A stretch of 61,165 bases of DNA, filler included. It is 4 parts of 4 records of this genome, joined end to end, with 100 filler letters (N's around TTAATTAATTAA, not from the genome) between each part and the next. Parts side by side here need not be neighbours in the genome. Positions count along the whole stretch, not along the records: positions 50,708 to 61,165 come from SRR31147125_23366; 3 more parts are not named here. One strand, 5' to 3'. A program made the position numbers and the translations under genes. Positions within the stretch are counted from its first letter, which is position 1, and each line of letters opens with the position of its first letter. The notes below the pieces were generated by a model. The model saw only the letters and a list, made by a program, of their open reading frames with translations. It did no database searches and was not told the origin of the DNA. Shown piece after piece: positions 12,136 through 61,165 of the stretch.

Positions 12136-12288
12136 TTATAAAAGAATCTCATTCAACGGGTAAATATTAAGAGCTGAAATATATTGCATTAGAAAAATAG
12201 AGCTAGAACAGGATAATCAGACTTGAAAAAGAAAGAGTAGACTGGGAAAAATTTAAAGAGATAACCTAAGTAACTAAACAACTAAAAC

Positions 12289-15213: not shown

Positions 15214-15259
15214 AGCTAAAAGAAAAAAGTTTAAGCTTTTAAAAAATACCAATATAGCT

Positions 15260-17107: not shown

Positions 17108-17119
17108 TGCAGGATAAAT

Positions 17120-18292
17120 ATGAATAAACTAAAACTAATAGTGGTCTCTTTTATCGTAATGTGTTCTTTTATTTCAGAAGGAAAAAAGAAAGAAGCACAT
17201 TTCAATCCTCCGCAGATAATTAAAAATCCAGCTTCATACGAAAAGTATTTGCCTGAAAGCAGGCAGTTTACAGGCATTCCGAGTTTAGCCATAAGCCCTG
17301 AGGGACGGATGTGGTGTGTTTGGTATGCCGGGCCAACTCCGCAAGAGGATAAAAATAACTATGTGGTAGTTTCTACCAGCGGCGATAAAGGAAAAACCTG
17401 GCAAGAAGTATTGGTAATAGATCCTGATGGCCCCGGAAAAGTAAGGGCTTTCGATCCCGAAGTTTGGATTGATCCCGATGGAAAACTCTGGGTATTTTGG
17501 GCTCAGGCAACCGCACTTAAAAAAGGTACAGGGGCTTTAATTACAGAAGGTACATCGGCAGGAGTTTGGGCAATAAAAACGAACAATGCAGAATCAACGA
17601 ATCCCAATTGGGATGTTCCCTTTAGAATTACAGATGGAGTAATGATGTGCAAACCAACCGTATTATCAAACGAAGAATGGGCACTCCCGGTTTCGATGTG
17701 GAAAAAAGAACCGGAACATGCAAGAATAGTAGTTTCTAACGATAAAGGAAATAGTTGGGAAATAAGAGGTGGAGCTTCTGTTCCTGATTCTGTAAGGAAT
17801 TTCGATGAGCACATGATTATCGAACGAAAAGATGGTTCGTTATGGATGTTAATACGTACTCGCTATGGAATTGGCGAAAGTTTTTCAACCGACCGAGGTG
17901 CTACCTGGACTCCACTCTCTCCATCTAAAATTCTTCATCCCAATGCCCGATTTTTTATTTCACGATTAAATTCCGGCAACCTGTTACTGGTAAAACATGG
18001 CCCGGTTGATATGAAAACAGGTCGCTCGCATCTTATGGCTTTTATCTCAAAAGACGATGGGCAAGCTTGGTCAAACGGTCTGCTTTTAGACGAAAGAAAG
18101 GGTGTTTCTTATCCCGATGGACAACAGCTAAAAGATGGCACTATTTATATTGTTTACGATTATAACAGAACGACTGACCAAAATATACTTTTTACTTCTT
18201 TTTCGGAAGAAGATGTAGAAAATGGAACTGATAATGAAATAATTGAGGTGTATCAGCGCAGGACAATTATTTATAAAAGAGGCACCAAATAA
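17120..18292 (+). CDS. Sialidase-like (BNR/Asp-box) protein
   Basis: Four Asp-boxes (SGDKGKTW, SNDKGNSW, STDRGATW, SKDDGQAW), DEH...LIRT, SYPD Tyr. Confidence 0.88.
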   Translation: MNKLKLIVVSFIVMCSFISEGKKKEAHFNPPQIIKNPASYEKYLPESRQFTGIPSLAISPEGRMWCVWYAGPTPQEDKNNYVVVSTSGDKGKTWQEVLVIDPDGPGKVRAFDPEVWIDPDGKLWVFWAQATALKKGTGALITEGTSAGVWAIKTNNAESTNPNWDVPFRITDGVMMCKPTVLSNEEWALPVSMWKKEPEHARIVVSNDKGNSWEIRGGASVPDSVRNFDEHMIIERKDGSLWMLIRTRYGIGESFSTDRGATWTPLSPSKILHPNARFFISRLNSGNLLLVKHGPVDMKTGRSHLMAFISKDDGQAWSNGLLLDERKGVSYPDGQQLKDGTIYIVYDYNRTTDQNILFTSFSEEDVENGTDNEIIEVYQRRTIIYKRGTK

Positions 18293-18342
18293 ATACGATA
18301 TTCGAACTTAGAACTAACTGATAAACAAACAACATTAAACCA

Positions 18343-19314
18343 ATGAAAGTTTTAAACCTTTTTAAATTAGCCTTACCAATGGCTTTTGTTTTTCTTATCT
18401 CTTGTAATGTAAAACAAGCGCCAACCGATTCTGCCAACCGCCCGCTAATTGTAAAATCGGGAACAATAGATTGCGATCTGGTAGAAACTACCCCAATCGT
18501 TTTCAAAGACAAAGTATACCGTTACGAATATGTAAGGCCGCGTTACTGGAATAACAAAACAGATGATTCGTATTCGAGGTTTATCGACCACGAAACAGGA
18601 GAAACGACAACACCATTTGCGAAAGGATATCACCTGGGGAGTGCTTTTGTAGAGAATAACACGGTTTATGTTACAGCTGTAAATATCTGGGATGGCGAAC
18701 AGATTCATGTTTTTAAATCGGACGACCTGGAAAACTGGGAGCACTGGATGGCTTTTGAACTGCCCGGTTTCGGCATTTTTAATACAACAATGACAAAAGC
18801 AGGCGACAAATATGTTTTAATGTTTGAAATTGGTAAACCTAAAAGTGAAGCTGGTACTCGTTTTACTGCCCGCTTTGCCACTTCCTCTGATATGAAAAAC
18901 TGGGAAGTACTACCTTCAAAATACAATTATGCAAAAGACCGGTATACCGCTCCACACTGCCTGCGTTACATGGATGGATATTATTACAATTTTTTCTTAG
19001 AACGGCACGAAGGTTTTGAAATGAGAGTGGTACGATCGAAAGACCTTGAACACTGGGAACTAAGCCCGTTAAATCCGGTTTTGAAAATTTCGGAAGAGGA
19101 TAAAATAATTGTCAACGATAACTTGCCGGATGAACTAAAGCAAAAAATAAAAGATGCTGAAAACAGAAATAATTCCGACTTCGATTTTTGTGAATACAAA
19201 GGGAAACTGGTAATAAACTATTCGTGGGGAGATCAGAGAGGAAAAGAGTTTTTGGCCGAGGCATCGTACGACGGGACAATGGAACAATTTTTAAAAGGAT
19301 GGTTCCCCGAGTAA
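18343..19314 (+). CDS. Beta-propeller glycosidase-like lipoprotein
   Basis: LISC lipobox; repeated SxDLxxW blades (SDDLENW, SSDMKNW, SKDLEHW), NPVL. Confidence 0.7.
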   Translation: MKVLNLFKLALPMAFVFLISCNVKQAPTDSANRPLIVKSGTIDCDLVETTPIVFKDKVYRYEYVRPRYWNNKTDDSYSRFIDHETGETTTPFAKGYHLGSAFVENNTVYVTAVNIWDGEQIHVFKSDDLENWEHWMAFELPGFGIFNTTMTKAGDKYVLMFEIGKPKSEAGTRFTARFATSSDMKNWEVLPSKYNYAKDRYTAPHCLRYMDGYYYNFFLERHEGFEMRVVRSKDLEHWELSPLNPVLKISEEDKIIVNDNLPDELKQKIKDAENRNNSDFDFCEYKGKLVINYSWGDQRGKEFLAEASYDGTMEQFLKGWFPE

Positions 19315-19363
19315 CTATTGATAGGTAAGTTTTACAACAGCGATAAATTAAAGAGAAATTAAG

Positions 19364-21626
19364 ATGAAAATACAAAACCAAAACAATAAGATTCTAATAC
19401 TGTTCATACTTAGTTTGCTGGCTTGTTCCCGCGAAACAAAACAACCCGTCGATTATGTAGATCCGTTTATCTGTACCCAGGGCGACCACGGGCATTGGCA
19501 TCCTGCTGCTTTGGTGCCCTTTGGTATGGTAAAACTGGGCCCAGATAGCTACCCCGGAAGTTTAACTGCGGACGGCGATTTTGCACATGGTGGTTACGAT
19601 TATTCAGATCATCAACTCCGTGGAATCAGTCATGTGCATCGTGGAAGTTCGGGTGGCGGAAGAATTAAAGACCGCGCAGGACTTATTTCTTTTGTACCTT
19701 TTACTAATACTCCAGCCGACACTTTTTTTGTAAACCCCGTGCTCGATTTCGATAAAAATACAGAAGAAGCAAAAGCCGATTATTACAAAACGCATCTTTT
19801 AAAAGATAATATATGGGTGGAATTAACAGCAACCGAACGTTCTGGAATACATAAATATTCACACCCGGGCGATGCTCCATTAAATTTATTTATGAATTCA
19901 GGAAACCGTGGGAACGCATTTACCTGCATACAAACTTCTTCGAATACAATTGAAGGCTCGGTAAGCAGTTATTATTTTGTTGCGAAATTTAGTTCGCCAA
20001 TAAGCGAAACAAAAGTTTGGGACAGTAAAAACCTTGTAGAAGGCACCGAAATTCAGCATCAATCTTTTGGCGGAATGGTTTTTAAATTTGATGAATTGAA
20101 TAACAATGAACTTCTGGTAAAAGTTGGGCTTTCAATGACTAGTATTGAGGCAGCAAAAAGAATTTGGAAGCTGAATGCCCGGAATGGAATTTTGAAGGAA
20201 TTCGAAAAAAAGCATACCAATCGTGGAGCGATAAACTTTCGGCAATTACTGTTGAAGGTGACAATGAAGATGATAAGACCATTTTTTACACAGCGCTCTA
20301 TCATACCTGCTTTTTGCCGCACATAACCAGCGATGTGGATGGAATTTATCCGGGATTGGATAAGAAAAATCACAAGGCGGAAGGTTACAGGGTGTTGAAC
20401 AACTATGCTTTCTGGGATTCGTTTCGCACAAAATATCCTTTGTATAGCATCTGGATTCCTGATGTTTACCGCGAGGTTGCCCAGTCGTTGCGCAATATTT
20501 ACCACCAGGCAGGAAACTGGGACCCATTCCCCGATAACGACCACCCGCCACATGGATTTTGTTATACGGTGCGTGGTGAAGACCACTATAATCCATGTTC
20601 GACATGCCGCCACGAGCACATGTTAATGGTAATGGCCGATGCGTATTTTAAAGGATTATTCGATTTTCCGTTGGAATCGGTTTATCCACACATGAAACAC
20701 GAAGCCATGATTCAAATGCCCGAACGCTACGATTCTATCGGTTTTATTCCTGCACGACCCGACCAAACCGGCGAGTATTCGTGGGACAACTGGACCATGG
20801 CAAATTTGGCCAAAGAACTCGGAAAAGATGACGAGTACAATTACTTTCTGAAGCGATCGAACTATTGGGAAAATACTTGGGACCCATCAATAAAATATTT
20901 CCGTGCCCGCGCAGCCGATGGCACCTGGCTCGATTTTCCTGACGACCCAACAGTAAATCGCGAAAAATACACCTACGAAGGCAGTAAATGGCACTGGCGA
21001 TGGAATATTGTTCACGATATTCCTGCCCTGATTGAAAAGTATGGAAGTGACGATGAATTCGTAACCGAACTGGAATATTTCTTCGATAACGATTTATATA
21101 CCGCCGGAAACCAGATTGATTTACACGCTCCGTTCCTGTTTAACAAGGCCGGTGCTCCCTGGTTAACGCAAAAATGGGTACGAAAAATTTTAACCGAGCC
21201 AATCGTACAGAAATACGGCACTCACAATTTCTTCCCGGAACCAATTTTCGACCGGGTTTACAAAACAACGCCTGATGGTTACTTATGGAAGAAATGGATT
21301 GCGATTACGGTTGCATGGCCGCCTGGTATAACATGGCTGCAATGGGGCTTTACCAGGTTTGTCCGGGCGATCCTGTCTATCAGTTAACGGCTCCTGTTTT
21401 CAACAAAATAACCATCAATCCAGAAAGCGATAATCGCTCAAATTCATTTGTGATTGAGGCAAATAATTTAAGCACAGAAAATATTTACATCCAGTCGGCA
21501 ACATTAAACGGAAAAGAACTAAACCGTTCATGGATTTCGCACGAAGAAGTTATTGGAGGAGGTGAGTTACTGTTTGAAATGGGGGCTGAGCCAAATAAAG
21601 AGTGGGGGATAACTATTAACGAATAA
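19364..21626 (+). CDS. GH92-family glycoside hydrolase lipoprotein, split by two frameshifts (about 20160 and 21285)
   Basis: YVDPFICT, VPFGMVKLGPD, FYTALYH, WDSFRT, YEGSKWHW, GNQ, YIQSATLNG; three ORF pieces are collinear. Confidence 0.85.
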
Positions 21627-23144: not shown

Positions 23145-23244
23145 NNNNNNNNNNNNNNNNNNNNNNNNNNNNNNNNNNNNNNNNNNNNTTAATTAATTAA
23201 NNNNNNNNNNNNNNNNNNNNNNNNNNNNNNNNNNNNNNNNNNNN
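23145..23244. other. Artificial contig spacer
   Basis: N44-TTAATTAATTAA-N44. Confidence 0.98.
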
Positions 23245-27949: not shown

Positions 27950-29154
27950 ATGAAAAAATTAGATAGACAACAAGTGTTAAAAGATCCGATTTACGGATAT
28001 ATACACATTGATTATCAAGTGATTAAGGATTTACTAAATACATCGATATTTCAACGACTAAGAAGAATTAGACAATTAAGTGGTGTACAAATGGTATTTC
28101 ACGGTGCAGAACATTCTAGATTCTCACATAGTCTAGGCGTCTATGAAGTTGCCTATCGATTTTTAAGTGTGCCTGATATTAACCAAGCATTATCCGATAG
28201 AGAAAAAGGATTATTGCTTGCTACAGCTTTGCTACATGATATTGGTCATGGTGCATACTCTCATGCATTTGAAGATATTGTAGGAACAAATCATGAACAC
28301 GTAGGGGCAAGACTAATTGTAGAGCATCCAGTATTAAGAAAAGTTTTAGATCAAGTTGATGATGAGTTTGCAATTGATGTTGCAGATATTTTATTAAAGA
28401 AAAAAGATTTCCACTTATTGAACAATTAGTATCTAGTCAATTAGATGTTGATCGTCTTGACTATTTGGAACGAGATGCATATTTCACAGGCACTGCATAT
28501 GGTCACATTGATCTTGATCGCATCATTCGTGTTTGTCATGTAAGAGATGGAAAAATAGTATTTAAAGAAAGTGGTATAGGTGCTATTGAGAATTATTTAA
28601 TTAGCAGATATCATATGTATTGGCAAGTATATTATCATCATGTGTCAAGAGCTTATGAAGTTATATTAGAAAAAATATTTAAACGTGTTAAATGGTTATG
28701 TTTAAATCATTTTAATTTTAAATCAAATATAATGCCACTTAAAAAAGTGATTGAAAATAAAGATGATTTAGAACATTATCTCATGATTGATGACTTTTAT
28801 ATGAATGGTTTAATCGCAAGTTTCTTATATTCAGAAGATGACGTATTAAAGCGATTATCAGATGATTTTTTAAATCGTCATATTTGGGCTTATGTTGATG
28901 ATACCAAAGATAACGAGCAAACAATCAAAGATATAAAGGCATCATTTTCTAAAGAGGATCAACCATACTACACTGCACATAAAACGGTATCAAATTTAAC
29001 ATATATTGATGGTGGTAAGAAGTTTGGAGACCGCATTTATATATTAATGCCAAATCAAGAAATTAAATCATTAAAAGATTGTTCACAAATTATAGGAAGT
29101 TTAGTAGAATCTGGGAAAAGACAAGATCCTAAATTCTTTTATAAAAAAATATGA
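27950..29154 (+). CDS. HD-domain dNTP triphosphohydrolase-like protein (YwfO type), one frameshift near 28400
   Basis: FQRLRRIRQL, HSRFSHSLG, LLHDIGHG; adding one A restores ...SSQLDVDRLDYLERD. Confidence 0.88.
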
Positions 29155-38924: not shown

Positions 38925-40505
38925 ATGTTACTACAACATCCAATTTATCCACTTGTCATCACATTATTTACAGTTGTACTTGTGGTGATGCAAAGTATAC
39001 AAAATGAAAAAGTATTGAAATTTAGAATGTTTATTGCTTTCTTTAATGTTGCAGTAGCTATTTTTGCGTTGTCTATCTATGATCAAATGATAGTGGGTGA
39101 TGCATTGTATGAAGAGATATATGTCACTTTTAATTTTATTGTTTATGGCATTTTTCTACTTGTGATATATGCAACATTTAAAACATCAGTATTAAAAGCT
39201 AATCATTACCAATTATTTGTTAAATCTATAAAGAATAGCCGATGGAATGCATATTATGTCGTTGATAAAAAAGAACGCATTAAAGATATCTCATCAAGTT
39301 TATTAATTGAGTTGAATATGGAAAAAGACGAAGTGATTGGGAAAAAACTATTTTCTATATTTAATCAATCAATTAGATTTACCAAATATAATAGTCAAGA
39401 TGTCAATAATAGACAACTTGAAAATTATTACTTAGATTATCGTAAAAATGCTAAAATGGGTGATCAAGAGATCGAAGAGTTATCATTTTTAAATAATGAG
39501 GGTGATCCTGTATTACTTCATATGGTGATGCAACCTGTTTTTGTAATGAATAAATACAGAGGAAGAATATGTGTGGGTGAAAAGAAGACAGACTTTGATT
39601 TGCTCGCAGTTGAAAAAGAATTAAATGATAGAAATAGTGAATTAGAAAGTATAAGACATAAGTTTATTGCAACACTTGATTTAAGTGAAGAAGGATTGTT
39701 CTATATTGATTTAGACGAAAGAAGTATATGGGCAAGTGATTATTTGGTCGAGATGTTAAAACTGCCAGGCAATCTATTAGATTTAACTGATTTTAGAAGA
39801 CTTATAGAAGCTGAAGATTTAAAGAAATATCTTGCTTTACTCGGTGAGTTAAGCATGAATAAGCGACAATATCAGATGTCATATCGACTATTAGTTGAAG
39901 GACGTTATTTATGGTTTAAAGAAAAAGGGATTAGATTATTTGAAGACCAGAACTCATCAACGATTATGGGAACATTAAAACCACAAAAAACAAGACATTT
40001 TCAAGCATCTAATATTGATGAATTAGATTTATTAAAAGATCATAATGATTTTATGCTTCATATGCATAAACTCTTTAAAGATGGTAGATATTTTCAATGT
40101 ATGGTATTTCGATTAAAAAATATGCCTCAAATTAATGAAAACCACGGACGAGAAATCGGTAATATGTTGATGGCAGAGTATATTAAAAAAATGAGAACAA
40201 ACTTTGTATCAGAAAGTGGAGGCATTTTTAGAATCTCTGGTATTGAGTTTGCAGTTATTTTAACAGATCCTAGAAAAATAGATGTATTAGAAAACGGTAC
40301 AGCATCAAATCCAAGTTTCTTAAATATTGACATGCAATATGGATCTATTCATGCAGAACTTGAAGTGTTTGCTGGTATTGCTATCGGTGGTAGTGATGCA
40401 TCTGAAGAACATGAATTATATCAGTGTGCGATTCAAGCCATAAAAGTTTCAGAAAACCCAAGATATAGTGCACAGGTTTGTTATTATAAAGATATTACAG
40501 TATGA
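38925..40505 (+). CDS. Membrane protein with PAS-like domains and a degenerate GGDEF domain
   Basis: Three N-terminal TMs, PAS-like segments, INENHGREIGN and FRISGIEFAV in place of GGDEF. Confidence 0.75.
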   Translation: MLLQHPIYPLVITLFTVVLVVMQSIQNEKVLKFRMFIAFFNVAVAIFALSIYDQMIVGDALYEEIYVTFNFIVYGIFLLVIYATFKTSVLKANHYQLFVKSIKNSRWNAYYVVDKKERIKDISSSLLIELNMEKDEVIGKKLFSIFNQSIRFTKYNSQDVNNRQLENYYLDYRKNAKMGDQEIEELSFLNNEGDPVLLHMVMQPVFVMNKYRGRICVGEKKTDFDLLAVEKELNDRNSELESIRHKFIATLDLSEEGLFYIDLDERSIWASDYLVEMLKLPGNLLDLTDFRRLIEAEDLKKYLALLGELSMNKRQYQMSYRLLVEGRYLWFKEKGIRLFEDQNSSTIMGTLKPQKTRHFQASNIDELDLLKDHNDFMLHMHKLFKDGRYFQCMVFRLKNMPQINENHGREIGNMLMAEYIKKMRTNFVSESGGIFRISGIEFAVILTDPRKIDVLENGTASNPSFLNIDMQYGSIHAELEVFAGIAIGGSDASEEHELYQCAIQAIKVSENPRYSAQVCYYKDITV

Positions 40506-50607: not shown

Positions 50608-50707
50608 NNNNNNNNNNNNNNNNNNNNNNNNNNNNNNNNNNNNNNNNNNNNTTAATTAATTAANNNNNNNNNNNNNNNNNNNNNNNNNNNNNNNNNNNNN
50701 NNNNNNN
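50608..50707. other. Artificial contig spacer
   Basis: N44-TTAATTAATTAA-N44. Confidence 0.98.
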
Positions 50708-50987
50708 TTTAGCTCTAACAAAAGATAAAACACTAAATAGCAAAAAAGAACAAATGAGAAACTCTCTTATTAGGCTTAACTCTACATTCAAAGAAGCTGG
50801 AATTGTTAAATTAGCTGATAGAATAACGAATCTGCAATCTCCACCAGAAAATTGGAATTCTGAGAAGATTATAGAATATAGAAATGAGGCTATGTCTATC
50901 TTAGAGTCACTTAAGGGTAAAAATCAATATTTAGAAAGTAGGCTACAAGCAAAAATTGAATCTTATGAAAAGTTTATCGGAAAATAG
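50708..50987 (+). CDS. Mesh1-like small (p)ppGpp hydrolase (HD domain), 5' truncated
   Basis: ALTKD...VKLADRITNLQSPPENW..EK..EY. Confidence 0.8.
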
Positions 50988-51002
50988 TTTTCATTAACAT
51001 AT

Positions 51003-51032
51003 AAAAAATGGACTTCAAGTTGAAGTCCATTT
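51003..51032. terminator. Bidirectional terminator
   Basis: AAATGGACTTCAA/TTGAAGTCCATTT between convergent genes. Confidence 0.8.
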
Positions 51033-51057
51033 CTTATATTATTATTCAAAGTATCTT

Positions 51058-52082
51058 TTAAGCTATTGTATATCTTGCCCTTCCTTTTTTCTTTGAATTA
51101 TATAACAATTCATCTGCCCTTTTGAATACTGATATCATATCATCATTTTCATGTAACCTTGTAACACCCAGACTAACAGTTACAGGCTCATTGTCACGCG
51201 TTTTTATCTTTTTAATTTTTTCATAATATATATTTAACATCTTAATTAGCTTTTTTTCTCTACTTGAGTGATTATACAAAATTCATCTCCACCCCACCTG
51301 GCAATAAATGTATCATCTCCTGTAATATCCTTTGCATAATCTGCAAGCTTACAAATTATTCTATCTCCCTCTCGATGTCCATAATTATCATTGATTTTTT
51401 TAAAATAGTCAATGTCAGCTATCATAACCCACATCTCATTATCAACATGCTCTCTGTTCTTCAAAACCTCTTCCATTTTTTTATCAAAAGCTCTACGATT
51501 ATACACATTCGTCAAAGAATCCATATGTGCGAAATAATTTAATTTTTCATTCGCTTCCCGTAATTTCTGTTTATCCTTTAGATAAGCTTTTGCAAATTGA
51601 ACTATCACAAAATGACCAAACAATAAAGTTGCAACTAGCTGGATGAATTTATCGCCACTATAAGATTTTATATTAGACTCTGCCAAAACATGGGGAAATT
51701 TATATTCTATAGCTATCAATGAAGATACTACAATCAGTAAAATAAATAGTAACAGTGTTCGCTCTGATTTTTGAAATATAAAAGAGATAAAAAACATCAC
51801 CAATAGTATATAGGGTACTACAGATGTACAGCCTCCTGAATCAAACCAAATATATGGTAAAAAAAACAGTGTTGTTGTTGTAAAATAAGTAATTTTTTTG
51901 CTAACTGCATCACAAAGCCAGTAAGAATATACCGATGTAGTAAATAAAATTACCCATTTCACGTTTATTCCCAATGGAAATCCAAATCCGATATTAACTA
52001 CAACGCTAACAATCGAGAGAAGGATTGATCCCTTTATTATTATTCCAAACATTATGTCTTGAAGCTCTGATTCTTTAGTCAT
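51058..52082 (-). CDS. Membrane-bound diguanylate cyclase; frameshift in A-run near 51255
   Basis: DSLTNVYNRR, DIDYFKKINDNYGH..GD, RWGGDEF; adding one A joins the C-terminal piece (SLGV, ADELLYNSKKKGR). Confidence 0.9.
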
Positions 52083-52366
52083 ATTAGTTTCTTCCTTTCC
52101 CCCTTCCCCCGTTTCCAATACATCAAAAAATCCCCCCGAAGAAATATACTACAAGAATAATAATTAATCATTTTTCAAATTATTATTCTCAAAATTGTTT
52201 TCTTTCGGAATAGATATTTCATAACGAAACATTTTTTGTTCTAAATGACCTTTACTTACTATTCATATAATTTCCTTCTTAATTTTTAAAAAAAATAAAT
52301 TTTTGCTAAAAAAAGAGCAGATTCGATAACAAACTACTCTTTTTTGAAAATGAATTCTATCTTAAT

Positions 52367-52878
52367 TTATTCTTCTTTATCTAAAATATGAAAAAAACCA
52401 GTTTGAAAGAATAAATGTTCAATTAAAATTGATGTACCTATTATTAGAGGAATTGAAACAATAAATCTAATTATGGTAAATTGAATCCCCAGCATAGATG
52501 CTTCCCATAGCGTCATAGGAACTCTACAGACACATGAAGCCCCTAAGTAACTTAGAACGATACTTAACTTAGCTCCTTTTTGATGAATAGTATAAGCTAC
52601 TGGAGCTGATACAAACAAACCACCTATATTACTCGCTGCAAGTAATAATGCCCACAAGTAACCTTTCACTCCAGAATTTTCACCTAAATGTTTCATCACT
52701 GTTTCATTTTTACCCACACTTTGAATAATCCCAACAATAGAAATATAGCAGGCATGATAGAAAATATAAATCTTGAATGTTTTAGAAATTTTTCTCCTAT
52801 CTCCTCACCAGCTTGAAAACCTGTGTTTTTAGAGATAAATATAAATATAAGAAAAATAGCTGAAACGATATATATCAT
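52367..52878 (-). CDS. Predicted permease (DUF318-like half), frameshift near 52708
   Basis: LLGLFKVWV+KNETVMKHLGENSG, GGLFVSAP, KGA, EASMLG..FT..R. Confidence 0.75.
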
Positions 52879-52909
52879 CCTGTTTTTTCTTTTTGCTTTT
52901 CATCATTCG

Positions 52910-53380
52910 TCATAATATCACCCCAATCATTATTGATATAATAATTGCAATAATATAACTAGTTATATTTCTAATTAAAGCTAACTTAAATCCAAAATAT
53001 TTTTGCTCAATTGGGAATGTGATTATACCTACAAGCATTAGAGTTGTTGTAAATGCTCCCAATACCATATACGAAACTCCTTCATTGAGTAACAAACCTG
53101 ATAAAGGAAAAGCTATAAATCCAGGAATAACAGCTATTGAGCCTACTATTGATGCTAAAAAAGTTCCAATTAGCTCATTATCACCTCCGAGAGAGTTAGC
53201 AATTAAGCTAGGGGGAACAAAATAAAGTGATATAGACATAACTATAAGCATCAACAAAAACATCGGTAGTATATTTAAAAACATCTTTTTAGCAATCTTT
53301 GCAGATTTTATCGTTTTTTCTTTACTCTTCGTAAAGGAATAAAAATAGAGAAGAATACAGAAAATATATAGATATAACAT
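52910..53380 (-). CDS. Predicted permease (DUF318-like half)
   Basis: KEKT.KS, GSIAVIPGFIAFPL, TTLMLVG...FPIEQKYFG.K.A..RN. Confidence 0.8.
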   Translation of the reverse strand: MLYLYIFCILLYFYSFTKSKEKTIKSAKIAKKMFLNILPMFLLMLIVMSISLYFVPPSLIANSLGGDNELIGTFLASIVGSIAVIPGFIAFPLSGLLLNEGVSYMVLGAFTTTLMLVGIITFPIEQKYFGFKLALIRNITSYIIAIIISIMIGVIL

Positions 53381-53400
53381 AGAATCTCCCTTCACAAGTT

Positions 53401-53446
53401 ATTAGCATTTGCTAATTTATTCTACTCTATTTTTTTAAACTTGCAA
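53401..53446 (-). promoter_or_regulatory. Permease promoter with palindromic operator
   Basis: TTGCAA (53441-53446), 16 bp, TAGAAT (53419-53424); ATTAGCA-TT-TGCTAAT at 53401-53416. Confidence 0.6.
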
Positions 53447-53483
53447 TACAAACCAAATATTTTTTATTCCTAAATAATAGAAA

Positions 53484-53513
53484 TCAATAGCCTACGCCGT
53501 AAACGGACGAGGT
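53484..53513. mobile_element. Isolated IS200/IS605-like terminal hairpin
   Basis: TCAATAG-CCTACGCCG-TAAA-CGGACGAGG, a GC-rich bulged hairpin in AT-rich DNA. Confidence 0.4.
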
Positions 53514-53580
53514 AAGGATTATTTATTCTATCTTTTGTTGGAAACATTGATTCGATAGATTGATTTAATCAAAAAAACGA

Positions 53581-53618
53581 AAAATAGATCACCTAATAAA
53601 TTTTAGACGATCTATTTT
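53581..53618 (-). terminator. Terminator of the reductase operon
   Basis: AAAATAGATC...GATCTATTTT stem with T-rich tail on the minus strand. Confidence 0.65.
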
Positions 53619-53657
53619 CCTTTTATTTAATCAATCATTAGATACGATAATTATTCT

Positions 53658-55112
53658 CTATTCAGCAAAGTTATTACGAATATATGTTACTGCATTATTT
53701 CCTGCCATTCTACCTGAGTTTACTGCAAATCCTAAGCTGTTTCCAGGTAATATAAATACATAGTCAGGATTGTAAACTGAGTTTGCATCTGTTCCAACTG
53801 CATATAATCCCGGTATTTTTTCTCCCTCTGTATTTAAAACTTCTGTATGATGATTTATCTTAATTCCTCCTGCACTACCATAAGCACTTGGAGCGAATTT
53901 TAGAGCATAATATTTAGGCCCAATTAGAGGTTTCATATATTTTTTATTTTTATTAAATACCTCATCACCAGATTCACAGTTTGCGTTATATGTATTAACT
54001 GTATCAATCAATGCATCTTTATCTATTCCTGATTTTTCAGCTAAATCTTCGATTGAATCAGCCACGAACAATATATCACTACCGTCTCTTAGCATCTCAT
54101 TCATCTCATGTTTAAAGTCATCCATAGTAATCTGAGCAGTTACTACGTTGATTAATTGTAGTCCATCTTTCTCATACATCTTCATTATTGATTCATCAAT
54201 AATTGAATAAGCTGTCCTATCTTTTTGTCTACAGATAGCATTCACTGAAAATACAGGATTTTCTACTATTGCTTCATCAAAGAATCTCTCTCCCTCAAGG
54301 TTAACAAACAGGTTCGGTTGTCTGAAAGGAAGCTCTATTGGAGCATATCCTCCTGTATTTGGTGCAAAGAATACTAATTCCATATCAGTATGATCTTTGT
54401 CTGCTCCTGCATCCCACGCCATCTGGATTCCGTCTCCAGTCAGACCAGGTATTCTATATGAAAACAGATCTTTTCCCCACTCAAATTTTGTATGTTTTTT
54501 AATAAAGTCAGGGTTATCACCAAATCCACCTGTTGCGATTACTACAGCTGATGAATATGCTTCTATATCACCATCTTTATCAGTTGCAACTACTCCGATT
54601 ACTTCTCCTTCATCTTTAATTAGTTCTTTTATCGGAGTCTCAAGGTGAATCTTCACTCCCAACTCTTCTGCTCTATCTGTCATAGCCTTTATCATTGTTG
54701 CTGCTGCTCTTAGTCCAGGTGCTCCTGTCTTTGGCTGAACAATGTGCCATGTTGCTTCTGAACCAGGGAAATATTTTGAGGGAAGTGCAAATTTAACTCC
54801 CATAGCTTGTAACCATTCAATAGTCTCTGCTGATTGATCTACATATTTTTTAACTAATCTTCCGTCTGCTCTCCAATGTGTATAATTCATAAATTTCTCA
54901 AATACAGCTTCTTTTGTACAATCAATTAATCTCTCTTTTTGAAGTTTCGTCTCTGCTCCAAAAAGACCCATAGCCATGTTAGCACATCCGCCCGTTGTAT
55001 TTGCCTTTTCAAACACTATAACTTCTGCACCTTTTTCCGCTGCTGTAATTGCTGCCGCCAGTCCTGAAGCTCCTCCTCCAACGATTATTACATCTGATTC
55101 CATTTCTCTCAT
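53658..55112 (-). CDS. FAD_binding_2 family flavoprotein reductase, cytoplasmic, substrate unknown
   Basis: GGGASG, FEK...GG, ATGGF, GDG, VNLEGERF.DE, IPGLYAVG, GNSLGFAVNSGR; GAGGAGG RBS before ATG 55112. Confidence 0.88.
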   Translation of the reverse strand: MREMESDVIIVGGGASGLAAAITAAEKGAEVIVFEKANTTGGCANMAMGLFGAETKLQKERLIDCTKEAVFEKFMNYTHWRADGRLVKKYVDQSAETIEWLQAMGVKFALPSKYFPGSEATWHIVQPKTGAPGLRAAATMIKAMTDRAEELGVKIHLETPIKELIKDEGEVIGVVATDKDGDIEAYSSAVVIATGGFGDNPDFIKKHTKFEWGKDLFSYRIPGLTGDGIQMAWDAGADKDHTDMELVFFAPNTGGYAPIELPFRQPNLFVNLEGERFFDEAIVENPVFSVNAICRQKDRTAYSIIDESIMKMYEKDGLQLINVVTAQITMDDFKHEMNEMLRDGSDILFVADSIEDLAEKSGIDKDALIDTVNTYNANCESGDEVFNKNKKYMKPLIGPKYYALKFAPSAYGSAGGIKINHHTEVLNTEGEKIPGLYAVGTDANSVYNPDYVFILPGNSLGFAVNSGRMAGNNAVTYIRNNFAE

Positions 55113-55186
55113 TTGTTTCCTCCTCATTAGAATTTGTTTTATTTAATAACTCTATATAATTCAAATAATAGATAATACATAGTTTT

Positions 55187-56437
55187 TTATGATTTTCTTC
55201 TACGTCTCCTTGATACTCCCAGTCCTTTTTTAACAGGAGCATTTGCATCAAAACTTCCCACAGCTACTATCTCTAGCGGAATATTTGGTTTAACAGTTCC
55301 GTATCTCTTAATAGCGCTATTTTTACAGACCGTCTCACATCTGCCGCATCTTTCACAACTATCCATATCAATGATGTGGATCATATTTTCTCCGCCTCTG
55401 ATAGCATTCGCTCCGCATACTTCTATGCACTCTCCACACCCTACACATGTTGAAGGATCAACATAAAAATTTGAGTATGCATTACAAGTTAAAGTTGGAC
55501 ACATTTTCCTTTCGATGTGTTTATCAAATTCATCTCCAAATTTTTCGATTGCATCACTTATAGGTTTAGATGCCGTCACTCCATAGTCACAAAGAGTTGC
55601 TGAATTAATTTTTTCACTTATCTCTTTAGCAAAACTCAGATCCCCATCTTTACTTTTACCCTGAGTAGCATCTTTTAAGATCTTATGAATCTGATAAAAA
55701 CCTTCTCTACAGAGCACACACTTGCCACATGTTCCGTTATTATTTACCCGAGCATTCTTCATTGCCCAATCTACAACACATCTCTCTTTATGAAAGACCT
55801 CTATTTTTCCAATTTCCAGCATAGCTGTATCACTAAGAAGTTCATTATACTCAAACTTCATTCCCAACTCATTTTCAGTATATAAACTTCCACTACTTCC
55901 GCCAACTTGTACAAACTTAATTGTTTGATTCTCTTTAACCCCGTCTGCGTAATTATCAATAATCTCTCTTAAAGTTAATCCAAAAGGAACTTCAACTACA
56001 GTTTCTTTATTAACATCTCCTGTTAAAGTCATAATCTTCTTTTGCGTATTATCTTCGTCTAATAAAACTTTTCCTATTTGAACTAAAGTTTCTGCATTAT
56101 GAACCAGCGTTTCCCCATCAAACACTGAATCTATTAACTTTTTAGCTTCATCTACATAAACTATCTCTATGGATTTATCTATATTCTCATCAACATGTCT
56201 CATATATTCTCTATTTAAATAAACTGTACATCTATCTAAGTTATGCCAGTTAAGAGTATAGTTAATTCCTGCAATCAGTTTGTTAAAACTATTTTGTAAC
56301 AGATATTCCATATTTCTACTTTGATCTACATCCTCTATAATTAGACAACTTAGCTTTTTCCATTCCTTCTCATTCCATCTACTTAGTATCTCTTTCCCCT
56401 TTATTCCTTGCCCATATAAATTTAATGTTTCTGTCAT
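55187..56437 (-). CDS. NuoF/HydB-like Fe-S subunit with degenerate N-terminal flavin/NAD domain
   Basis: SLBB segment (VEVPFGLTLREII, QVGGSSG), TCGKCVLCREG...LC, HI...CP..C, two CxxCxxCxxxC. Confidence 0.85.
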   Translation of the reverse strand: MTETLNLYGQGIKGKEILSRWNEKEWKKLSCLIIEDVDQSRNMEYLLQNSFNKLIAGINYTLNWHNLDRCTVYLNREYMRHVDENIDKSIEIVYVDEAKKLIDSVFDGETLVHNAETLVQIGKVLLDEDNTQKKIMTLTGDVNKETVVEVPFGLTLREIIDNYADGVKENQTIKFVQVGGSSGSLYTENELGMKFEYNELLSDTAMLEIGKIEVFHKERCVVDWAMKNARVNNNGTCGKCVLCREGFYQIHKILKDATQGKSKDGDLSFAKEISEKINSATLCDYGVTASKPISDAIEKFGDEFDKHIERKMCPTLTCNAYSNFYVDPSTCVGCGECIEVCGANAIRGGENMIHIIDMDSCERCGRCETVCKNSAIKRYGTVKPNIPLEIVAVGSFDANAPVKKGLGVSRRRRRKS

Positions 56438-56448
56438 TTTCTCACCTC

Positions 56449-58560
56449 CTATCTGTGTTTATATTCTGTCCAGAATTTTTGTTTCGTTAATTGTGGTCTC
56501 AAATCACATTGTAAACATCTAGAGGCTTCACATTTTGCCTCTTTTTCAGCAAGCCCAATTGTCATCAGGTCAAAGTTATCTTTTCTCTCATCAACTGCTA
56601 CACAAGTAAAATTACTCTTCTCTATTTTGCTAAAACTTTCATCTATTCCCAGATAAGTGCTAATATCCTGCTCTGACGACAAATTTTCGCTAATATCACC
56701 ATCGCCACCTAAATATTTGTCAACACTTACTACTACCTTTCTAGCTTCTCCTATTGCTTGAATAACTGAAGATGTTCCGATTACAGCATCTCCCACTGCA
56801 AATACTCCCTCTAGGTTAGTTTTGCCATCTTTATTAACATCTATTAGAGATTTTCCCGTTGTTTTCAGCTCTTGGAAGTTATCAAGATTAACTCTTTGAC
56901 CAGTTGCAAAAATAATAGTTTCTCCCATTATTTCATGTTCTGAGTTCTCTTTAACTGTCAGATTTAATTTACCATTTTCATCAAATTCGAACTTTTCAAC
57001 TTCATTACAAAGCAGTCCTTTTACCTCATCATTTTTGCTGGCAATTTTAACAAAAGTTCTATCATTGTATATCTTGATTCCCTCTTCCAAGCCTTCCTCA
57101 ATCTCTTCGATACTGGCTGGCATATTCTCTCTTGATTCCAGACATACTATAGAAACATCTGTTACTCCCAGTCTTTTAGCTGTTCTAGCGCAATCAAATG
57201 CTACATTTCCTCCACCTAAAACAATTACTGAATCTTTAAGTTTTATATCATTTTCTACTAGTTCTCTTCTTAAGAAATCCATGTTAGTGTGAACATCAGG
57301 TAGCTCATGACCCTCTATTCCTATCTTCACACCCTTGTCTGTTCCAAGAGCCATTATAATTGCATCATAGTTTTCCTCTTTTAAGATATCAATAGAGTTA
57401 ACTTCACAGTTTGTTATGATATTAACACCTACTTCTCTTATTAAATCTATCTCTGACTCCACCACTTCATTTGGCAAACGATAATTTGGTATTCCGGCAG
57501 ATAACATTCCACCTGCTACAGGCAGTTTCTCCAACACATCTACATCATGCCCAAGTTTCGCTAAATAATAAGCCGCTGTCAGACCAGCAGGACCTGATCC
57601 CACTACTACTATTTTTTTACCTGTTTTTTCTTTTTGAAAAGCTTTCTCTTTCCATTTGTAACTATCTCTTTCAGAAGCAAAACGCTTTAGTTCTCTAACA
57701 GATACAGTTTCATTTATCTCACTTCTTCTACACTTCTCTTCACAGAATCTCATGCAAATAAGACCAAGTGATTTTGGGAATGGAGCTTTTTCTCTAATAA
57801 CAGCTGCAGCTTCATCAAAGTTTCCTTCCTTTATATATCTCACATACTTTGGTACATTTATCCCAGCAGGACATTCAGTCTTACATGGAACAAGTACATC
57901 TTCTCTGTTCCCCTCCCTAAACATACCGTCTTTATCTTGCAATGCGCCGGTAGGACAGACCTCTACACATGCACCGCAAAATTTACAGTTTGCTTCCATT
58001 AAAGATCTGTTTCCTTTTATTGCCACAAGCGATCTATCATTTTCACTCTTAGTACTCTCCCAGACACCTACACCTCTAATATCCTTACATACTCTGATAC
58101 ATCTGCCACACTGTATACACCTGTTTAGATCTCTTACTATCAATGGATTTGACGTATCAACAGGTACTGCATCAAGTGTTCTTCTAACTCTAGAAGTACT
58201 TACTCCTAAATACTGAATAAGTGACTGTAGTTCACATTTCAAATATTTTGGACATGTTGTACAGTCATCAACATGATTTGCAAGCATCAGTTCCATAGAC
58301 AATCTTCTCAGTTCATCTAATTTCTCTGATTTACTTGTAACTTTCATATCATTAGTAATCTTTGTTGTACATGAGGTTTGTATATCTTTTTCTCCCTCGA
58401 TTTCAACAACACACAATTGACATCCTCCTACAGGATGCAGATCAGGATGACCACACAGATGCGGGATAAAAATATCATTAGCTTCAGCAGCTTCGAGAAT
58501 AGTTTCACCTTTTTTCGCATACACATCTAATCCGTCAATTGAAATTTTAATCTTTTCCAT
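56449..58560 (-). CDS. NuoG/HydA-like Fe-S N-terminus fused to a GltD/NfnB-like FAD/NAD(P)H module
   Basis: IPHLC..GGCQLC..C [2Fe-2S]; H..DCTTC..C; CIQCGRCIRVC, CKFCGACVEVCP; then PCKTECP, ICMRFCEEKC, GSGPAG, GGGNVA, EASRCLQC. Confidence 0.9.
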   Translation of the reverse strand: MEKIKISIDGLDVYAKKGETILEAAEANDIFIPHLCGHPDLHPVGGCQLCVVEIEGEKDIQTSCTTKITNDMKVTSKSEKLDELRRLSMELMLANHVDDCTTCPKYLKCELQSLIQYLGVSTSRVRRTLDAVPVDTSNPLIVRDLNRCIQCGRCIRVCKDIRGVGVWESTKSENDRSLVAIKGNRSLMEANCKFCGACVEVCPTGALQDKDGMFREGNREDVLVPCKTECPAGINVPKYVRYIKEGNFDEAAAVIREKAPFPKSLGLICMRFCEEKCRRSEINETVSVRELKRFASERDSYKWKEKAFQKEKTGKKIVVVGSGPAGLTAAYYLAKLGHDVDVLEKLPVAGGMLSAGIPNYRLPNEVVESEIDLIREVGVNIITNCEVNSIDILKEENYDAIIMALGTDKGVKIGIEGHELPDVHTNMDFLRRELVENDIKLKDSVIVLGGGNVAFDCARTAKRLGVTDVSIVCLESRENMPASIEEIEEGLEEGIKIYNDRTFVKIASKNDEVKGLLCNEVEKFEFDENGKLNLTVKENSEHEIMGETIIFATGQRVNLDNFQELKTTGKSLIDVNKDGKTNLEGVFAVGDAVIGTSSVIQAIGEARKVVVSVDKYLGGDGDISENLSSEQDISTYLGIDESFSKIEKSNFTCVAVDERKDNFDLMTIGLAEKEAKCEASRCLQCDLRPQLTKQKFWTEYKHR

Positions 58561-58577
58561 CCAATAAAACCTCCGTC

Positions 58578-58606
58578 TTGACTATTTCAAATATTATTTC
58601 TATAAT
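58578..58606 (+). promoter_or_regulatory. Promoter of the MerR-family gene
   Basis: TTGACT, 17 bp, TATAAT. Confidence 0.75.
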
Positions 58607-58609
58607 ATG

Positions 58610-58640
58610 AGTATAAAGTCTGCCATAATGGCAAAGTCAA
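58610..58640 (-). promoter_or_regulatory. MerR-type promoter of the reductase operon
   Basis: TTGACT, 19 bp, TATACT, with a perfect dyad TGCCAT-A-ATGGCA (58621-58633) in the spacer. Confidence 0.9.
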
Positions 58641-58658
58641 TAGGGAGTGTGAAAAAAA

Positions 58659-59473
58659 TTGACAAATTTATACACGATTGGGCAAGTTGCCCGTTTTATG
58701 AACGTTTCATCTAAAATATTAAGACATTATGATCATCTGGGTTTATTAAAACCCTCTTATGTATGCCCAGAAACTAAATATAGATATTTTAGTTATGAGC
58801 AATTTTTTCGTATTGACATTATTAGATATTTAAACAAAACTTTGATGATACCCCTAGAAGATGTAAAGGAATTACTTCACAATGATAAAGGTTATTCCAA
58901 TCTAAGTGAAATATTAGATAACCATTCTAAAAGTCTAAAAAAGCAAATTGAGGATTTGGAATACTCTAAAAGATTAACTGACAATCTATTAGCTGATATG
59001 AAACATAAAAGCAATCATTTTGAAAAACCCAGAATATATGAAACATACCTCATGAGTCGAAACCTATACTATAAGGAACTGGATGTTTCTATCCTTGAAA
59101 TTGATAAATATGCAAATAGAAATTTTAAGAATATGATAGGAAAAGCGAATAAAGATAATGTTATGTGTTTACTCTTCTCGATGAATGAATTTAGAAAAAC
59201 AAAAGAATTAAGAGTGAAAGGTTTTTGTATATTTTCTGACGAAGAGATCGAAGGCTTAGAGAAGAAAACTCTCAAGGAGGGGCGTTATCTGGTTGATAGG
59301 TTTCAGTTTTCTGAAGAGAATCTATGTGCAAAGATGGATGAGATCTTAGATTATGAGAAAAAAACAATATTCATTTGTGCAATGATGCAATCTTAATTTC
59401 AAAAATGGTTAATCTTGAAGCTAGTTCAAAATATGATTACCTAATGGATTTACAGTTTAAGTTCAGTATATGA
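58659..59473 (+). CDS. MerR family regulator (BmrR-like, probable GyrI-type C-domain); frameshift in A-run near 59360
   Basis: YTIGQVA...VS...LRHYD..GLLKP...YRYF; adding one A extends to ...YDYLMDLQFKFSI stop. Confidence 0.9.
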
Positions 59474-59500
59474 AAAAGGCAGACTACTCTAGTCTGCCTT
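59473..59500. terminator. Bidirectional terminator
   Basis: AAGGCAGACTA-CTC-TAGTCTGCCTT between convergent genes. Confidence 0.85.
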
Positions 59501-59502
59501 AA

Positions 59503-60525
59503 TTACTCTATTACATATCTGTCTCTACCCTGTTTTTTTGCTTTATATAAATTATCATCTACTCTTTTAAACAGCGATAACATATCGTCTAAAACTTCCA
59601 GTTTAGTGACCCCTGCACTAATTGTTATTATAATTCCTTCAACTTCCATCTCACGAACTTTTGTAAAAAACGTCTCTACTGTTTCAAGAAACTCCTGCTC
59701 TGACTTCTCTATTATCATACAGAATTCATCTCCACCCCATCGGGATATAAAAGCCGCCCCCATTACTTCTCTGGTTGTTTCTGAAAGTTTCTTCAGAACT
59801 TTATCTCCCTCTTTATGCCCATAATTGTCATTTAGTCTTTTGAAATAATCTATATCAAACAATACTAGCCATATCTCGGTATCAAGGTGTTCTTTTCCTT
59901 CCAGTATCTCCGCTAATCTGTCATCAAATGCTCTACGGTTATAAAAATTTGTTAGAGAATCGTGCATTGCTAAATATTTTAGTTTTTTATTCGCTTCCTC
60001 TAGTTTTTGCTTATCATCAATATAAGAATTAATGAATTGTACTAGTATCCAATAAGAAAACCCAAGAGTTAAAGGTATTTGAATCAACCTATCGAAATAC
60101 TGACTTGATTCAGAATAATCCCGAGCAACATCAGGAAAGTATCTCTCTAAAAAAAAGAGTAGAAATACAACGAGGAGTAATATTATATTTAAACTATTCC
60201 GTTTATTTTTTGGAAATAAAAATGTAATCGTAATTAAAAGTAGGAAAATATATGAGATACTATTTGCTATCTCTCCTCCTGCATCTATCCAACCTAAGGG
60301 TAGCAATATTAATAATACTCCCAAAAAATATACAAATTTTAGGTCTCTTTGATTTTTACTATTAAGTAATATCCCGGAAACCATCAACATAAATATCCAT
60401 TTTACATTTACAACAAAAGAATAGCTCACTAATAAATTGCCAGCTATTGAAAACAGTGATAATATTGTAATTCCTCTTACGAGTATTAAGTATATTTTAT
60501 CCTGAAACTCTCCTCTGCTATCCAT
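59503..60525 (-). CDS. Membrane-bound diguanylate cyclase (paralog of 51058-52082)
   Basis: DSLTNFYNRR, DIDYFKRLNDNYGH..GD, RWGGDEF, LYKAKKQGRDR. Confidence 0.92.
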   Translation of the reverse strand: MDSRGEFQDKIYLILVRGITILSLFSIAGNLLVSYSFVVNVKWIFMLMVSGILLNSKNQRDLKFVYFLGVLLILLPLGWIDAGGEIANSISYIFLLLITITFLFPKNKRNSLNIILLLVVFLLFFLERYFPDVARDYSESSQYFDRLIQIPLTLGFSYWILVQFINSYIDDKQKLEEANKKLKYLAMHDSLTNFYNRRAFDDRLAEILEGKEHLDTEIWLVLFDIDYFKRLNDNYGHKEGDKVLKKLSETTREVMGAAFISRWGGDEFCMIIEKSEQEFLETVETFFTKVREMEVEGIIITISAGVTKLEVLDDMLSLFKRVDDNLYKAKKQGRDRYVIE

Positions 60526-60801
60526 TTCCCTCACCAAAATATAAAAGATTTTAATTAAAAAATATGTCTCTTTAAAGGTTTAATTGAACTTGTCTTCGAA
60601 AAATCTTTTATACGAAACTCAATCTAATTTAATAAGTTCATTATACATTATCCCTATAAATTAGTCAAAAGTATATTATTCCTTAGTTTTCAATTCATAA
60701 TTCTCGTATAATATTCTAAAGAGTTAAATTTAAAGTTTTGCTTTTCCAAAACTTTTACTGTTTCTGTTTTCCACTTATATTATAAATAAAGGAGTATAAC
60801 A

Positions 60802-61165
60802 ATGAAAAGAATAATTTTTATTTGTCTGTTATTCACCATAATTTTGCCTTTATCCGCCTCAAGTTTCCGTGTTGCTAGCCTAAATATACACTATATAAGA
60901 CCTGGTTCAGATAGAATGAATTGGGATAAAAGAAAGAACTCAGTCAAACTGGTATTAGGAGAGATTAAGGCCGATATCATTGCATTCCAAGAGATGGAGA
61001 CTTTTGAGGGAAAGCACTTCACTAATCGAAATATTCAACTTGATTTTATCCTTAAACATTATCCTGAATATTCTGTAGGTGCAACAGGAAATCCAAAGAA
61101 TTTTCCCATTACACAACCAATACTTTATAAAGAAGATAAATTTCAGCTGTTAGATCAAGGATTTT
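60802..61165 (+). CDS. Secreted endonuclease/exonuclease/phosphatase (EEP) family protein, 3' truncated
   Basis: AAGGAG RBS; signal peptide, RVASLNI, W..RK, ADIIAFQE, PILY. Confidence 0.85.
   Translation, partial: MKRIIFICLLFTIILPLSASSFRVASLNIHYIRPGSDRMNWDKRKNSVKLVLGEIKADIIAFQEMETFEGKHFTNRNIQLDFILKHYPEYSVGATGNPKNFPITQPILYKEDKFQLLDQGF

Follow-up and report, generated by a model that had tools for sequence, protein, structure and literature searches.

Near the end of the window, by which we mean the whole stretch of 61,165 nucleotides that was analyzed (parts of four records joined end to end, with positions 50,708 to 61,165 deriving from record SRR31147125_23366), lies a cassette of three co-oriented genes and one divergent regulator gene, here called A, B, C and merR. 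Gene A (56449-58560, minus strand) is an open reading frame (ORF) of 703 amino acids with Pfam, NCBIfam and PDB sequence matches, followed after 11 nucleotides by gene B (55187-56437, minus strand; ORF of 416 amino acids) and, another 59 nucleotides downstream, by gene C (53658-55127, minus strand; ORF of 489 amino acids). An intrinsic terminator (53620-53579, minus strand), consisting of an 18-pair hairpin and a subsequent T-run, is located 3' of gene C. On the other side of A, merR (58659-59473, plus strand), encoding a regulator of the BmrR type with an N-terminal match to Pfam MerR_1 (PF13411), is transcribed divergently from the operon. The merR-A intergenic region measures 98 bp and contains two divergent promoters: a MerR-type operon promoter (58640-58610, minus strand; TTGACT-19-TATACT) with an inverted repeat within its spacer, and the merR promoter (58578-58606, plus strand; TTGACT-17-TATAAT), which is the best promoter-like match of the region (11/12) and sits 4 bp from the operon -10 box. 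All of these elements were found exactly where a first-pass annotation, made from the DNA letters alone, had placed them.

As written in the window, the merR reading frame stops at 59396, due to a frameshift in a run of seven adenines (59358-59364), leaving this copy without its last ~40 residues in frame; orthologs of the regulator are 270 to 283 amino acids long. Alignment with these orthologs showed that the shifted frame runs on to a stop ending at 59473, which coincides with the end coordinate that the locus had initially been given. A single 29x contig from a public sequencing run (X1) spans positions 53600 to 59520 and is identical to the window except for one extra A behind 59357. This run is possibly the source sample of the window and was therefore counted as a second assembly, not as an independent strain. 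By our reading of the frames, the extra A would join both parts into one open merR gene and, since the contig is otherwise identical, the break most likely represents a homopolymer-length error in the record, rather than a pseudogene. Other genes in the window are split or truncated as well (19364-21387, 27950-29154, 51058-52118 and 52367-53395), namely, a GH92 glycoside hydrolase whose N-terminal and catalytic parts lie in frames that overlap, a protein with an HD domain that is divided over two ORFs, a GGDEF gene interrupted after 290 amino acids and an ArsP-like permease in pieces. Runs of six to seven A's or T's lie at or near four of the five junctions of these split genes, which suggests homopolymer-length errors throughout the record.

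A Pfam sequence search detected no GyrI-like domain in the regulator. Nevertheless, for an AlphaFold2 model of the ortholog from Clostridium magnum (predicted local distance difference test score of 83), the best Foldseek match was full-length BmrR (3q1m; E-value of 1.6e-16, template modeling score of 0.66, 24% identity), and the model thus predicts a BmrR fold, with a winged helix-turn-helix, a long coiled coil and a GyrI-like ligand domain. The promoter architecture is of the corresponding kind: -35 and -10 boxes that lie 19 to 20 bp apart and enclose a palindrome are a hallmark of MerR-family activation by DNA distortion, and a 19-bp-spacer promoter with a palindrome was present in all 34 merR-A intergenic regions compared (that of the window and those of 33 other loci), with operator half-sites that co-vary in some lineages. 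In short, the system resembles BmrR of Bacillus subtilis in its promoter and in the superposition of the ortholog model, but BmrR governs a multidrug efflux pump, whereas the cassette regulator governs a putative reductase.

The gene-neighborhood search that had been suggested as a check on the four-gene set was carried out around both B and C. Seventeen B-centered loci were obtained with an alignment as the query (a single-sequence query with B retrieved no relatives), while the C-centered search returned 302 places encoding a relative, of which the best 80 were tallied, 10 of these being identical to B-centered places. The divergent merR and A-B-C were present in the order of the window in 10 of the 17 B-centered loci, with identities to the window of ~68% for A, 45% for B, 78% for C and 55% for MerR. 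Around C, 33 of the 80 tallied loci contained merR, A and B, 25 contained A and B, and 3 contained A only; of the remainder, one locus with only B and one with only merR were each located beside a contig end, and 17 had neither A nor B. Together with the invariable presence of the MerR-type promoter, this recurrence puts the order of the cassette beyond chance. All loci with a C protein that is at least 71% identical carry the full cassette, except for one (L030), where the contig ends inside B.

The hosts of the cassette include C. magnum, Clostridium beijerinckii, Clostridium thailandense, Clostridium yunnanense, several Lacrimispora species, [Clostridium] aerotolerans, Acetobacterium, Anaerotignum propionicum, Petroclostridium and Desulfosporosinus. 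Outside close relatives, the flanking genes differ, and no transporter was found to travel with the cassette in the flanks of the B-centered loci. At 45 to 56% identity of C, relatives were found in Sporomusa and in metagenome-assembled genomes of Chloroflexota and Desulfobacterales, with the gene orders C-A-B or B-A-C. The pairing of C with A- and B-type genes is often present in multiple copies per genome and often located within flavonoid or C-glycoside clusters. FMN_red proteins of ~315 amino acids accompany C in many other loci, often including the NuoE-bearing relatives discussed below. Finally, one locus (L010:5276-13268) contains an A-like gene (47% identical) and a gene for a NuoF-like protein of 511 amino acids with degenerate flavin motifs, without a C gene. 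Since this pair sits among genes encoding MFS, cupin, SDR, 3-hydroxyacyl-coenzyme A dehydrogenase, cyclase and thiolase proteins, the A-B module apparently has further partner enzymes.

The product of A had been read in the first-pass annotation as a NuoG/HydA-type Fe-S wire fused to a GltD/NfnB-like module, an architecture then likened to that of BfuABC-type complexes such as NfnABC and StnABC. Both modules are indeed present. Residues 1 to 216 constitute a NuoG/HydA-type N-terminal module with a [2Fe-2S] cluster, a His-ligated [4Fe-4S] cluster and two additional [4Fe-4S] clusters, equivalent to the N-terminal cluster module of BfuA-type proteins. Residues 221 to 686 constitute a GltD/NfnB-type module with two [4Fe-4S] clusters, flavin adenine dinucleotide (FAD) and a Rossmann fold for NAD(P)H (reduced nicotinamide adenine dinucleotide, with or without the additional phosphate), the motifs for both cofactors being recognizable. 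Pfam matches cover both parts (Fer2_4, NADH-G_4Fe-4S_3 and Fer4_Nqo3, followed by Fer4_20 and Pyr_redox_2), and the Cys and His cluster ligands are invariant in 27 orthologs. The closest solved relatives are NfnA of Caldicellulosiruptor (9bov_A; 8.6e-125, 421 bits), StnA of Sporomusa (8oh5_C) and NfnA of Thermococcus sibiricus (9n5u_A), and A also matches the NADPH-binding flavin module of NfnSL (5jca_L, 1.9e-50; 4ylf_B, 9e-60). However, A is not built like NfnA or StnA. While it holds all three pieces of these proteins, as seen in NfnABC and StnABC (9bov/9bp5, 8oh5 and 9n5u), i.e., the [2Fe-2S] domain, the GltD-type module with FAD and two [4Fe-4S] clusters and the part with the His-ligated and two other [4Fe-4S] clusters, the GltD module of NfnA and StnA interrupts the sequence between the [2Fe-2S] domain and the other clusters (behind residue ~100 in NfnA), whereas that of A is appended. 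In addition, A ends without the molybdopterin-like domain of ~500 amino acids found at the end of NfnA and StnA.

The motifs GSGPAGL, GGGNVAFDCAR and CLE of the GltD-type module were kept in 60 of 60 A sequences. The last of these lies where the second strand of the dinucleotide fold ends, a position at which, according to the alignment, NfnA and StnA read YRR. In Rossmann folds, an acidic side chain at this place is usually associated with the use of NADH instead of NADPH. Because the acidic CLE replaces the YRR of the NADPH-using NfnA and StnA, we infer with moderate confidence that A would use NADH rather than NADPH.

The description of B as a HydB/NuoF-like subunit proved correct for its C-terminal two thirds. 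Residues 127 to 416 alone match NuoF/HydB and comprise the SLBB region, an N3-type [4Fe-4S] cluster and a C-terminal domain with two [4Fe-4S] clusters; accordingly, the Pfam search returned the NADH_4Fe-4S and 2x[4Fe-4S] domains but no match to Complex1_51K (PF01512), and the NCBIfam NuoF model was matched only from position 228 on. The segment that binds flavin mononucleotide (FMN) and NADH, on the other hand, has been deleted. Alignment to canonical HydB/NuoF sequences showed that the N-terminal thioredoxin-like domain is absent, that the flavin motif GRGGAGFPTGxKW has degenerated into GQGIKGKEILSRW and that the segment carrying GAGAFVCGEETAL is missing altogether. Compared with NfnB, StnB and HydB, which were also its top Foldseek matches, B therefore has neither the [2Fe-2S] domain at the N terminus nor the FMN/NADH segment, but it shares the C-terminal Fe-S domains and a fold that can still be aligned as a whole. 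Twelve cluster cysteines and a His/Cys hinge (linker) motif are invariant, and the C-terminal tail is basic. The N-terminal remnant is the least conserved part of the protein, with 35% identity to orthologs, versus 53 to 56% for the Fe-S domains. A search of 5.8 billion proteins yielded ~20 full-length proteins of the same form (408 to 424 amino acids, 43 to 49% identity), none of which has PF01512.

A different electron donor was also considered. Reduced ferredoxin or flavodoxin might deliver electrons either to the ferredoxin-like domain of B or to the head of A that is of the NuoG type, docking there directly, in which case the GltD-type flavin would have a structural or regulatory role instead of being the point of entry. 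NuoG/HydA-type heads and HydB C-terminal domains do occur on ferredoxin-linked enzymes, and the hosts are ferredoxin-rich anaerobes, but a dinucleotide-binding motif that is invariant in all A sequences is hard to square with an unused site, and we consider such a donor improbable.

Across the C-centered loci, the length of B ranges from 638 down to 159 amino acids. Its flavin motifs are intact in four of these loci (L056, L082, L079 and L073), degenerate in six (L080, L062, L092, L037, L055 and L051) and deleted in the window and L066; in many loci, B is a stub of 191 to 267 amino acids that contains Fe-S domains only. L062, L082 and L056 have a NuoE-type gene next to B, and in L092 the two are fused. 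The first-pass annotation had remarked that the NuoE/HydC subunit is missing and a terminal flavoprotein added, which holds for the operon, as no NuoE/BfuC gene (PF01257) was found there or among the scanned ORFs of the window. It does not hold for the wider family, in which NuoE-containing versions with the same flavoprotein exist in other phyla. Some distant relatives, having a NuoE-like protein, an intact or degenerate BfuB, A and C, are apparently complete Bfu-type complexes with an additional subunit of the fumarate reductase fold.

The Bfu core, according to the part of Schut et al. 2022 that was available (PMC9304861), consists of FMN and six clusters in BfuBC. Neither the BfuB FMN/NADH site (Complex1_51K with intact glycine-rich motifs) nor a BfuC protein (NuoE-type [2Fe-2S]) is present in the cassette, the latter with respect to the operon and the scanned window ORFs. 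Since relatives of B range from intact BfuB with NuoE to stubs of 159 amino acids, the cassette is, judging from these sequences, a reduced derivative of a Bfu-type complex, not a member of the Bfu family, and B would be the relic of a NuoF-like bifurcating subunit. The same source proposes that the family bifurcates with varied third substrates; its available text lists no third module like C and contains the word "fumarate" zero times.

With neither an FMN site in B nor a NuoE partner, bifurcation of the Bfu type is not expected in the cassette. A second possibility is that electrons from NADH bifurcate at the GltD-type FAD of A, in a manner similar to that of NfnSL, with one branch serving the high-potential reduction of a C=C bond at C and the other leading through the Fe-S domains of B to ferredoxin, so that a cell detoxifying or respiring the substrate would gain reduced ferredoxin in addition. 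Several observations are in line with this idea: A shares homology with NfnA/StnA and with the flavin module that binds NADPH in NfnSL, B has kept a ferredoxin-like domain with two [4Fe-4S] clusters for which a simple wire has no obvious need, some relatives combine an intact BfuB with NuoE, A and C, bifurcation is proposed for the Bfu family as a whole (PMC9304861, as far as its text was accessible), and the hosts include the acetogens Acetobacterium and Sporomusa. However, the bifurcating core of the Bfu family (FMN in BfuB, plus BfuC) is missing from the cassette, B is cut down to 159 amino acids or undetected in some lineages and the second electron exit is hypothetical. We therefore regard bifurcation at A as unlikely.

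The third protein, C, belongs to the FAD_binding_2 superfamily (PF00890; 197 bits, 6.7e-58, residues 12 to 454), including the N-terminal GxGxxG motif. Inspection of its sequence and N terminus revealed neither a signal peptide nor an extra domain, and the Pfam search found no NAD(P)H-binding or other electron-input domain in C itself. From these features, C is presumed to be a cytoplasmic, catalytic ene-reductase of the soluble fumarate reductase fold. Its best PDB matches are Fcc3, the flavocytochrome c3 fumarate reductase of Shewanella (7e-45), and the urocanate reductase UrdA (1e-37). Residues H365, R402, H504 and R544 of Fcc3 (numbering of the aligned PDB chains), which we take to be its substrate-binding and catalytic residues, align with A255 (or V252), E289, Y416 and Y456 of C, and Y416 and Y456 are invariant in 14 homologs. 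As all four fumarate-binding residues have been replaced, we ruled out fumarate reductase as the identity of C; from the sequence, the pocket does not appear to be dicarboxylate shaped. A secreted respiratory reductase, the type of enzyme treated in the available portion of the preprint by Little et al., was rejected on the basis of the N terminus, which has no signal peptide.

The best NCBIfam family for C is that of the vinylphenol reductase VprA (NF053717; 334.9 bits), with residues 9 to 481 aligned to positions 5 to 480 of the 481-position model, and the same family ranked first for 14 of 14 C homologs (best E-value, 2.4e-105). C is collinear with VprA of Lactiplantibacillus plantarum over its whole length, and, where VprA acts in the cytoplasm on nonrespiratory substrates, C would do the same. 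The two differ in that vprA is a lone gene under the control of a LysR regulator (PMC10295242, in the part seen), whereas C sits in a MerR-controlled operon with A and B; the comparison of C with VprA was made at the level of the family model. C also matched models of KstD-type and tricarballylate dehydrogenases (1e-46 to 1e-52), from which one could argue that C is an oxidative desaturase, like the 3-ketosteroid dehydrogenases, with A and B passing electrons on to NAD+ or ferredoxin. Yet these scores are far below that of the VprA match and, considering established redox potentials, desaturation of a C-C bond could not drive the reduction of NAD+ or ferredoxin without extra energy, rendering this direction of electron flow extremely improbable.

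The example of VprA also raises the question of whether the cassette encodes one enzyme at all. C might work alone, as VprA of L. plantarum would as a single gene under its LysR regulator (PMC10295242, same part), with A and B forming a separate NAD(P)H:ferredoxin oxidoreductase that merely neighbors it, an arrangement for which the C-less pair in L010 and the 17 of 80 loci without A or B near C could be cited. On the other hand, no more than 6 kb separates A from C in 61 of the 80 loci, which cover several phyla and three gene orders, all three genes share one promoter and one terminator in the MerR clade, and C itself is devoid of domains for NAD(P)H binding or other electron input. Taken together, we deem it quite improbable that the proteins are mere neighbors.

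Some clues to the substrate come from [Clostridium] aerotolerans DSM 5434, which holds three A-B-C sets. One of these is the MerR cassette (L054). A second set, in the order C-A-B (L108; G001:C1:92000-110000), is preceded by genes for a DAPG/phloretin-hydrolase-like protein, a PucR regulator and an FMN_red protein, and the third, also C-A-B (L109; G001:C1:185000-203000), lies inside a C-glycoside deglycosidase cluster with MFS_2, GFO/IDH/MocA, CGDB and xylose-isomerase-like TIM barrel proteins. The strain itself is credited with vinylphenol reduction and cinnamate metabolism, according to the accessible part of a review (PMC10602680). Based on these flavonoid-type clusters, the FMN_red neighbors and the activities of DSM 5434, the wider family appears to belong to plant polyphenol metabolism; the links do not specify which compound the MerR cassette would act on.

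On balance, we favor the interpretation, which we consider probable, if only by a modest degree, that the cassette encodes an inducible, cytoplasmic, three-protein C=C reductase that is driven by NADH and acts on a substrate of phenolic or hydrophobic nature. The BmrR-type MerR would bind a hydrophobic, probably plant-derived aromatic compound and remodel the overspaced 19-bp promoter, switching on A-B-C. NADH, or less likely NADPH, would then reduce the FAD in the GltD-type half of A, as its motifs suggest, and single electrons could travel along six Fe-S clusters in A and three [4Fe-4S] clusters in B before reaching the FAD of C; the ligands of these clusters are conserved, whereas their order and the docking of A, B and C are those that we would expect. 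Finally, C would saturate the double bond of a nondicarboxylate, possibly one of the vinylphenol type or another phenylpropanoid or polyphenol. The first-pass annotation had arrived at a ligand-induced cytoplasmic Fe-S/flavin system that passes electrons from NAD(P)H or ferredoxin to an organic acceptor, a proposal that fits well with the conserved cassette, the MerR-type promoter, the predicted BmrR fold and the NuoE-less operon.

Several observations weigh against the NADH-driven C=C reductase as just outlined. With 335 bits, C falls below the curated cutoff of 600 bits for VprA and does not qualify as an equivalog; furthermore, the three C paralogs of [C.] aerotolerans score 346, 337 (cassette copy) and 281 bits against the VprA model, so the match fails to single out the cassette copy. 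Phenolic acid decarboxylase is encoded in only two of five cassette-bearing genomes, a count that speaks neither for nor against vinylphenol as the substrate. The suggested preference of A for NADH hinges on a single motif. The 17 C loci without A or B nearby, 6 of which are flanked by less than 1 kb on one or both sides, indicate that C-type enzymes can also work with other donors. Lastly, the complete relatives with intact BfuB and NuoE retain the GltD module as well, and its role may therefore differ from simple NADH entry.

With respect to its genomic surroundings, the window consists of low-GC, chromosomal DNA (~30% G+C) that includes serS, prs, pth, mfd, ispDF and tsaBDE, all of them common housekeeping genes. 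Paralogous GGDEF proteins with a DUF6057-like membrane N terminus are encoded on both sides of the cassette region (51246-52118 and 59503-60537), and a third GGDEF protein, with a weak match, lies at 38925-40505. A block of glycoside hydrolase genes (10480-21387; GH39, GH2-like, BNR/sialidase-like and GH92) suggests a glycan-degrading lifestyle of the host. At 10272-10371, 23145-23244 and 50608-50707, all outside the cassette, the window contains, in each case, two runs of 44 N's with 12 bases in between. Short contigs from a sediment metagenome run (X2) match positions 58295-58452 and 58899-59114 with zero and one differences, respectively, at a depth of 2; that sediment may therefore harbor this organism or one very close to it, although its share is too small for naming a habitat.

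When anaerobes saturate the double bonds of aromatic compounds from the diet or from plants, including cinnamates, urocanate and vinylphenols, the main known route is through soluble enzymes of the fumarate reductase fold. Fcc3, UrdA, ARD, CrdAB, HcrB and CirD, all soluble FAD_binding_2 ene-reductases, share with C the catalytic fold and the principle of a variable electron-input module that feeds an FAD reducing an activated C=C bond. They draw their electrons from hemes or from FMN_bind- or OYE-type (old yellow enzyme) modules, whereas the input of the cassette would be an Fe-S wire derived from NuoG, GltD and NuoF. The system had been taken to be uncharacterized, and our full-text literature search bore this out in that no paper describing an enzyme with this subunit set was found; similarly, no clostridial enzyme turned up in the titles or abstract beginnings of the literature on vinylphenol reductase. 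A preprint from November 2025, as far as its text was available, names just four gene sets known to reduce cinnamate (fldZ, acdA, crdAB and cirD), none of which is built like the cassette. The cassette is thus made up of known modules in a widespread, so far undescribed combination.

A more far-reaching version of these ideas holds that the cassette is one reduced member of a large, undescribed, Bfu-derived family of ene-reductases for plant polyphenols, that complete versions couple NADH oxidation to the reduction of both a C=C bond and ferredoxin, that the MerR version still bifurcates at the GltD-type FAD of A and that it could be the long-sought clostridial vinylphenol (ethylphenol-forming) reductase, which, as a whole, we think rather unlikely. 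A candidate product, 4-ethylphenol, is of interest to gut-brain research (PMC10602680, in the part available). What the cassette and its relatives bring together is a reductase of the fumarate reductase fold and an electron-input module derived from NfnABC/HydABC. If our interpretation is correct, this pairing would represent a new electron-input class for soluble fumarate-reductase-fold reductases and would provide a natural series that leads from a bifurcating NuoF-type subunit down to a bare Fe-S connector, along with a ready-made, ligand-responsive MerR switch, the inducer of which would point to the substrate.

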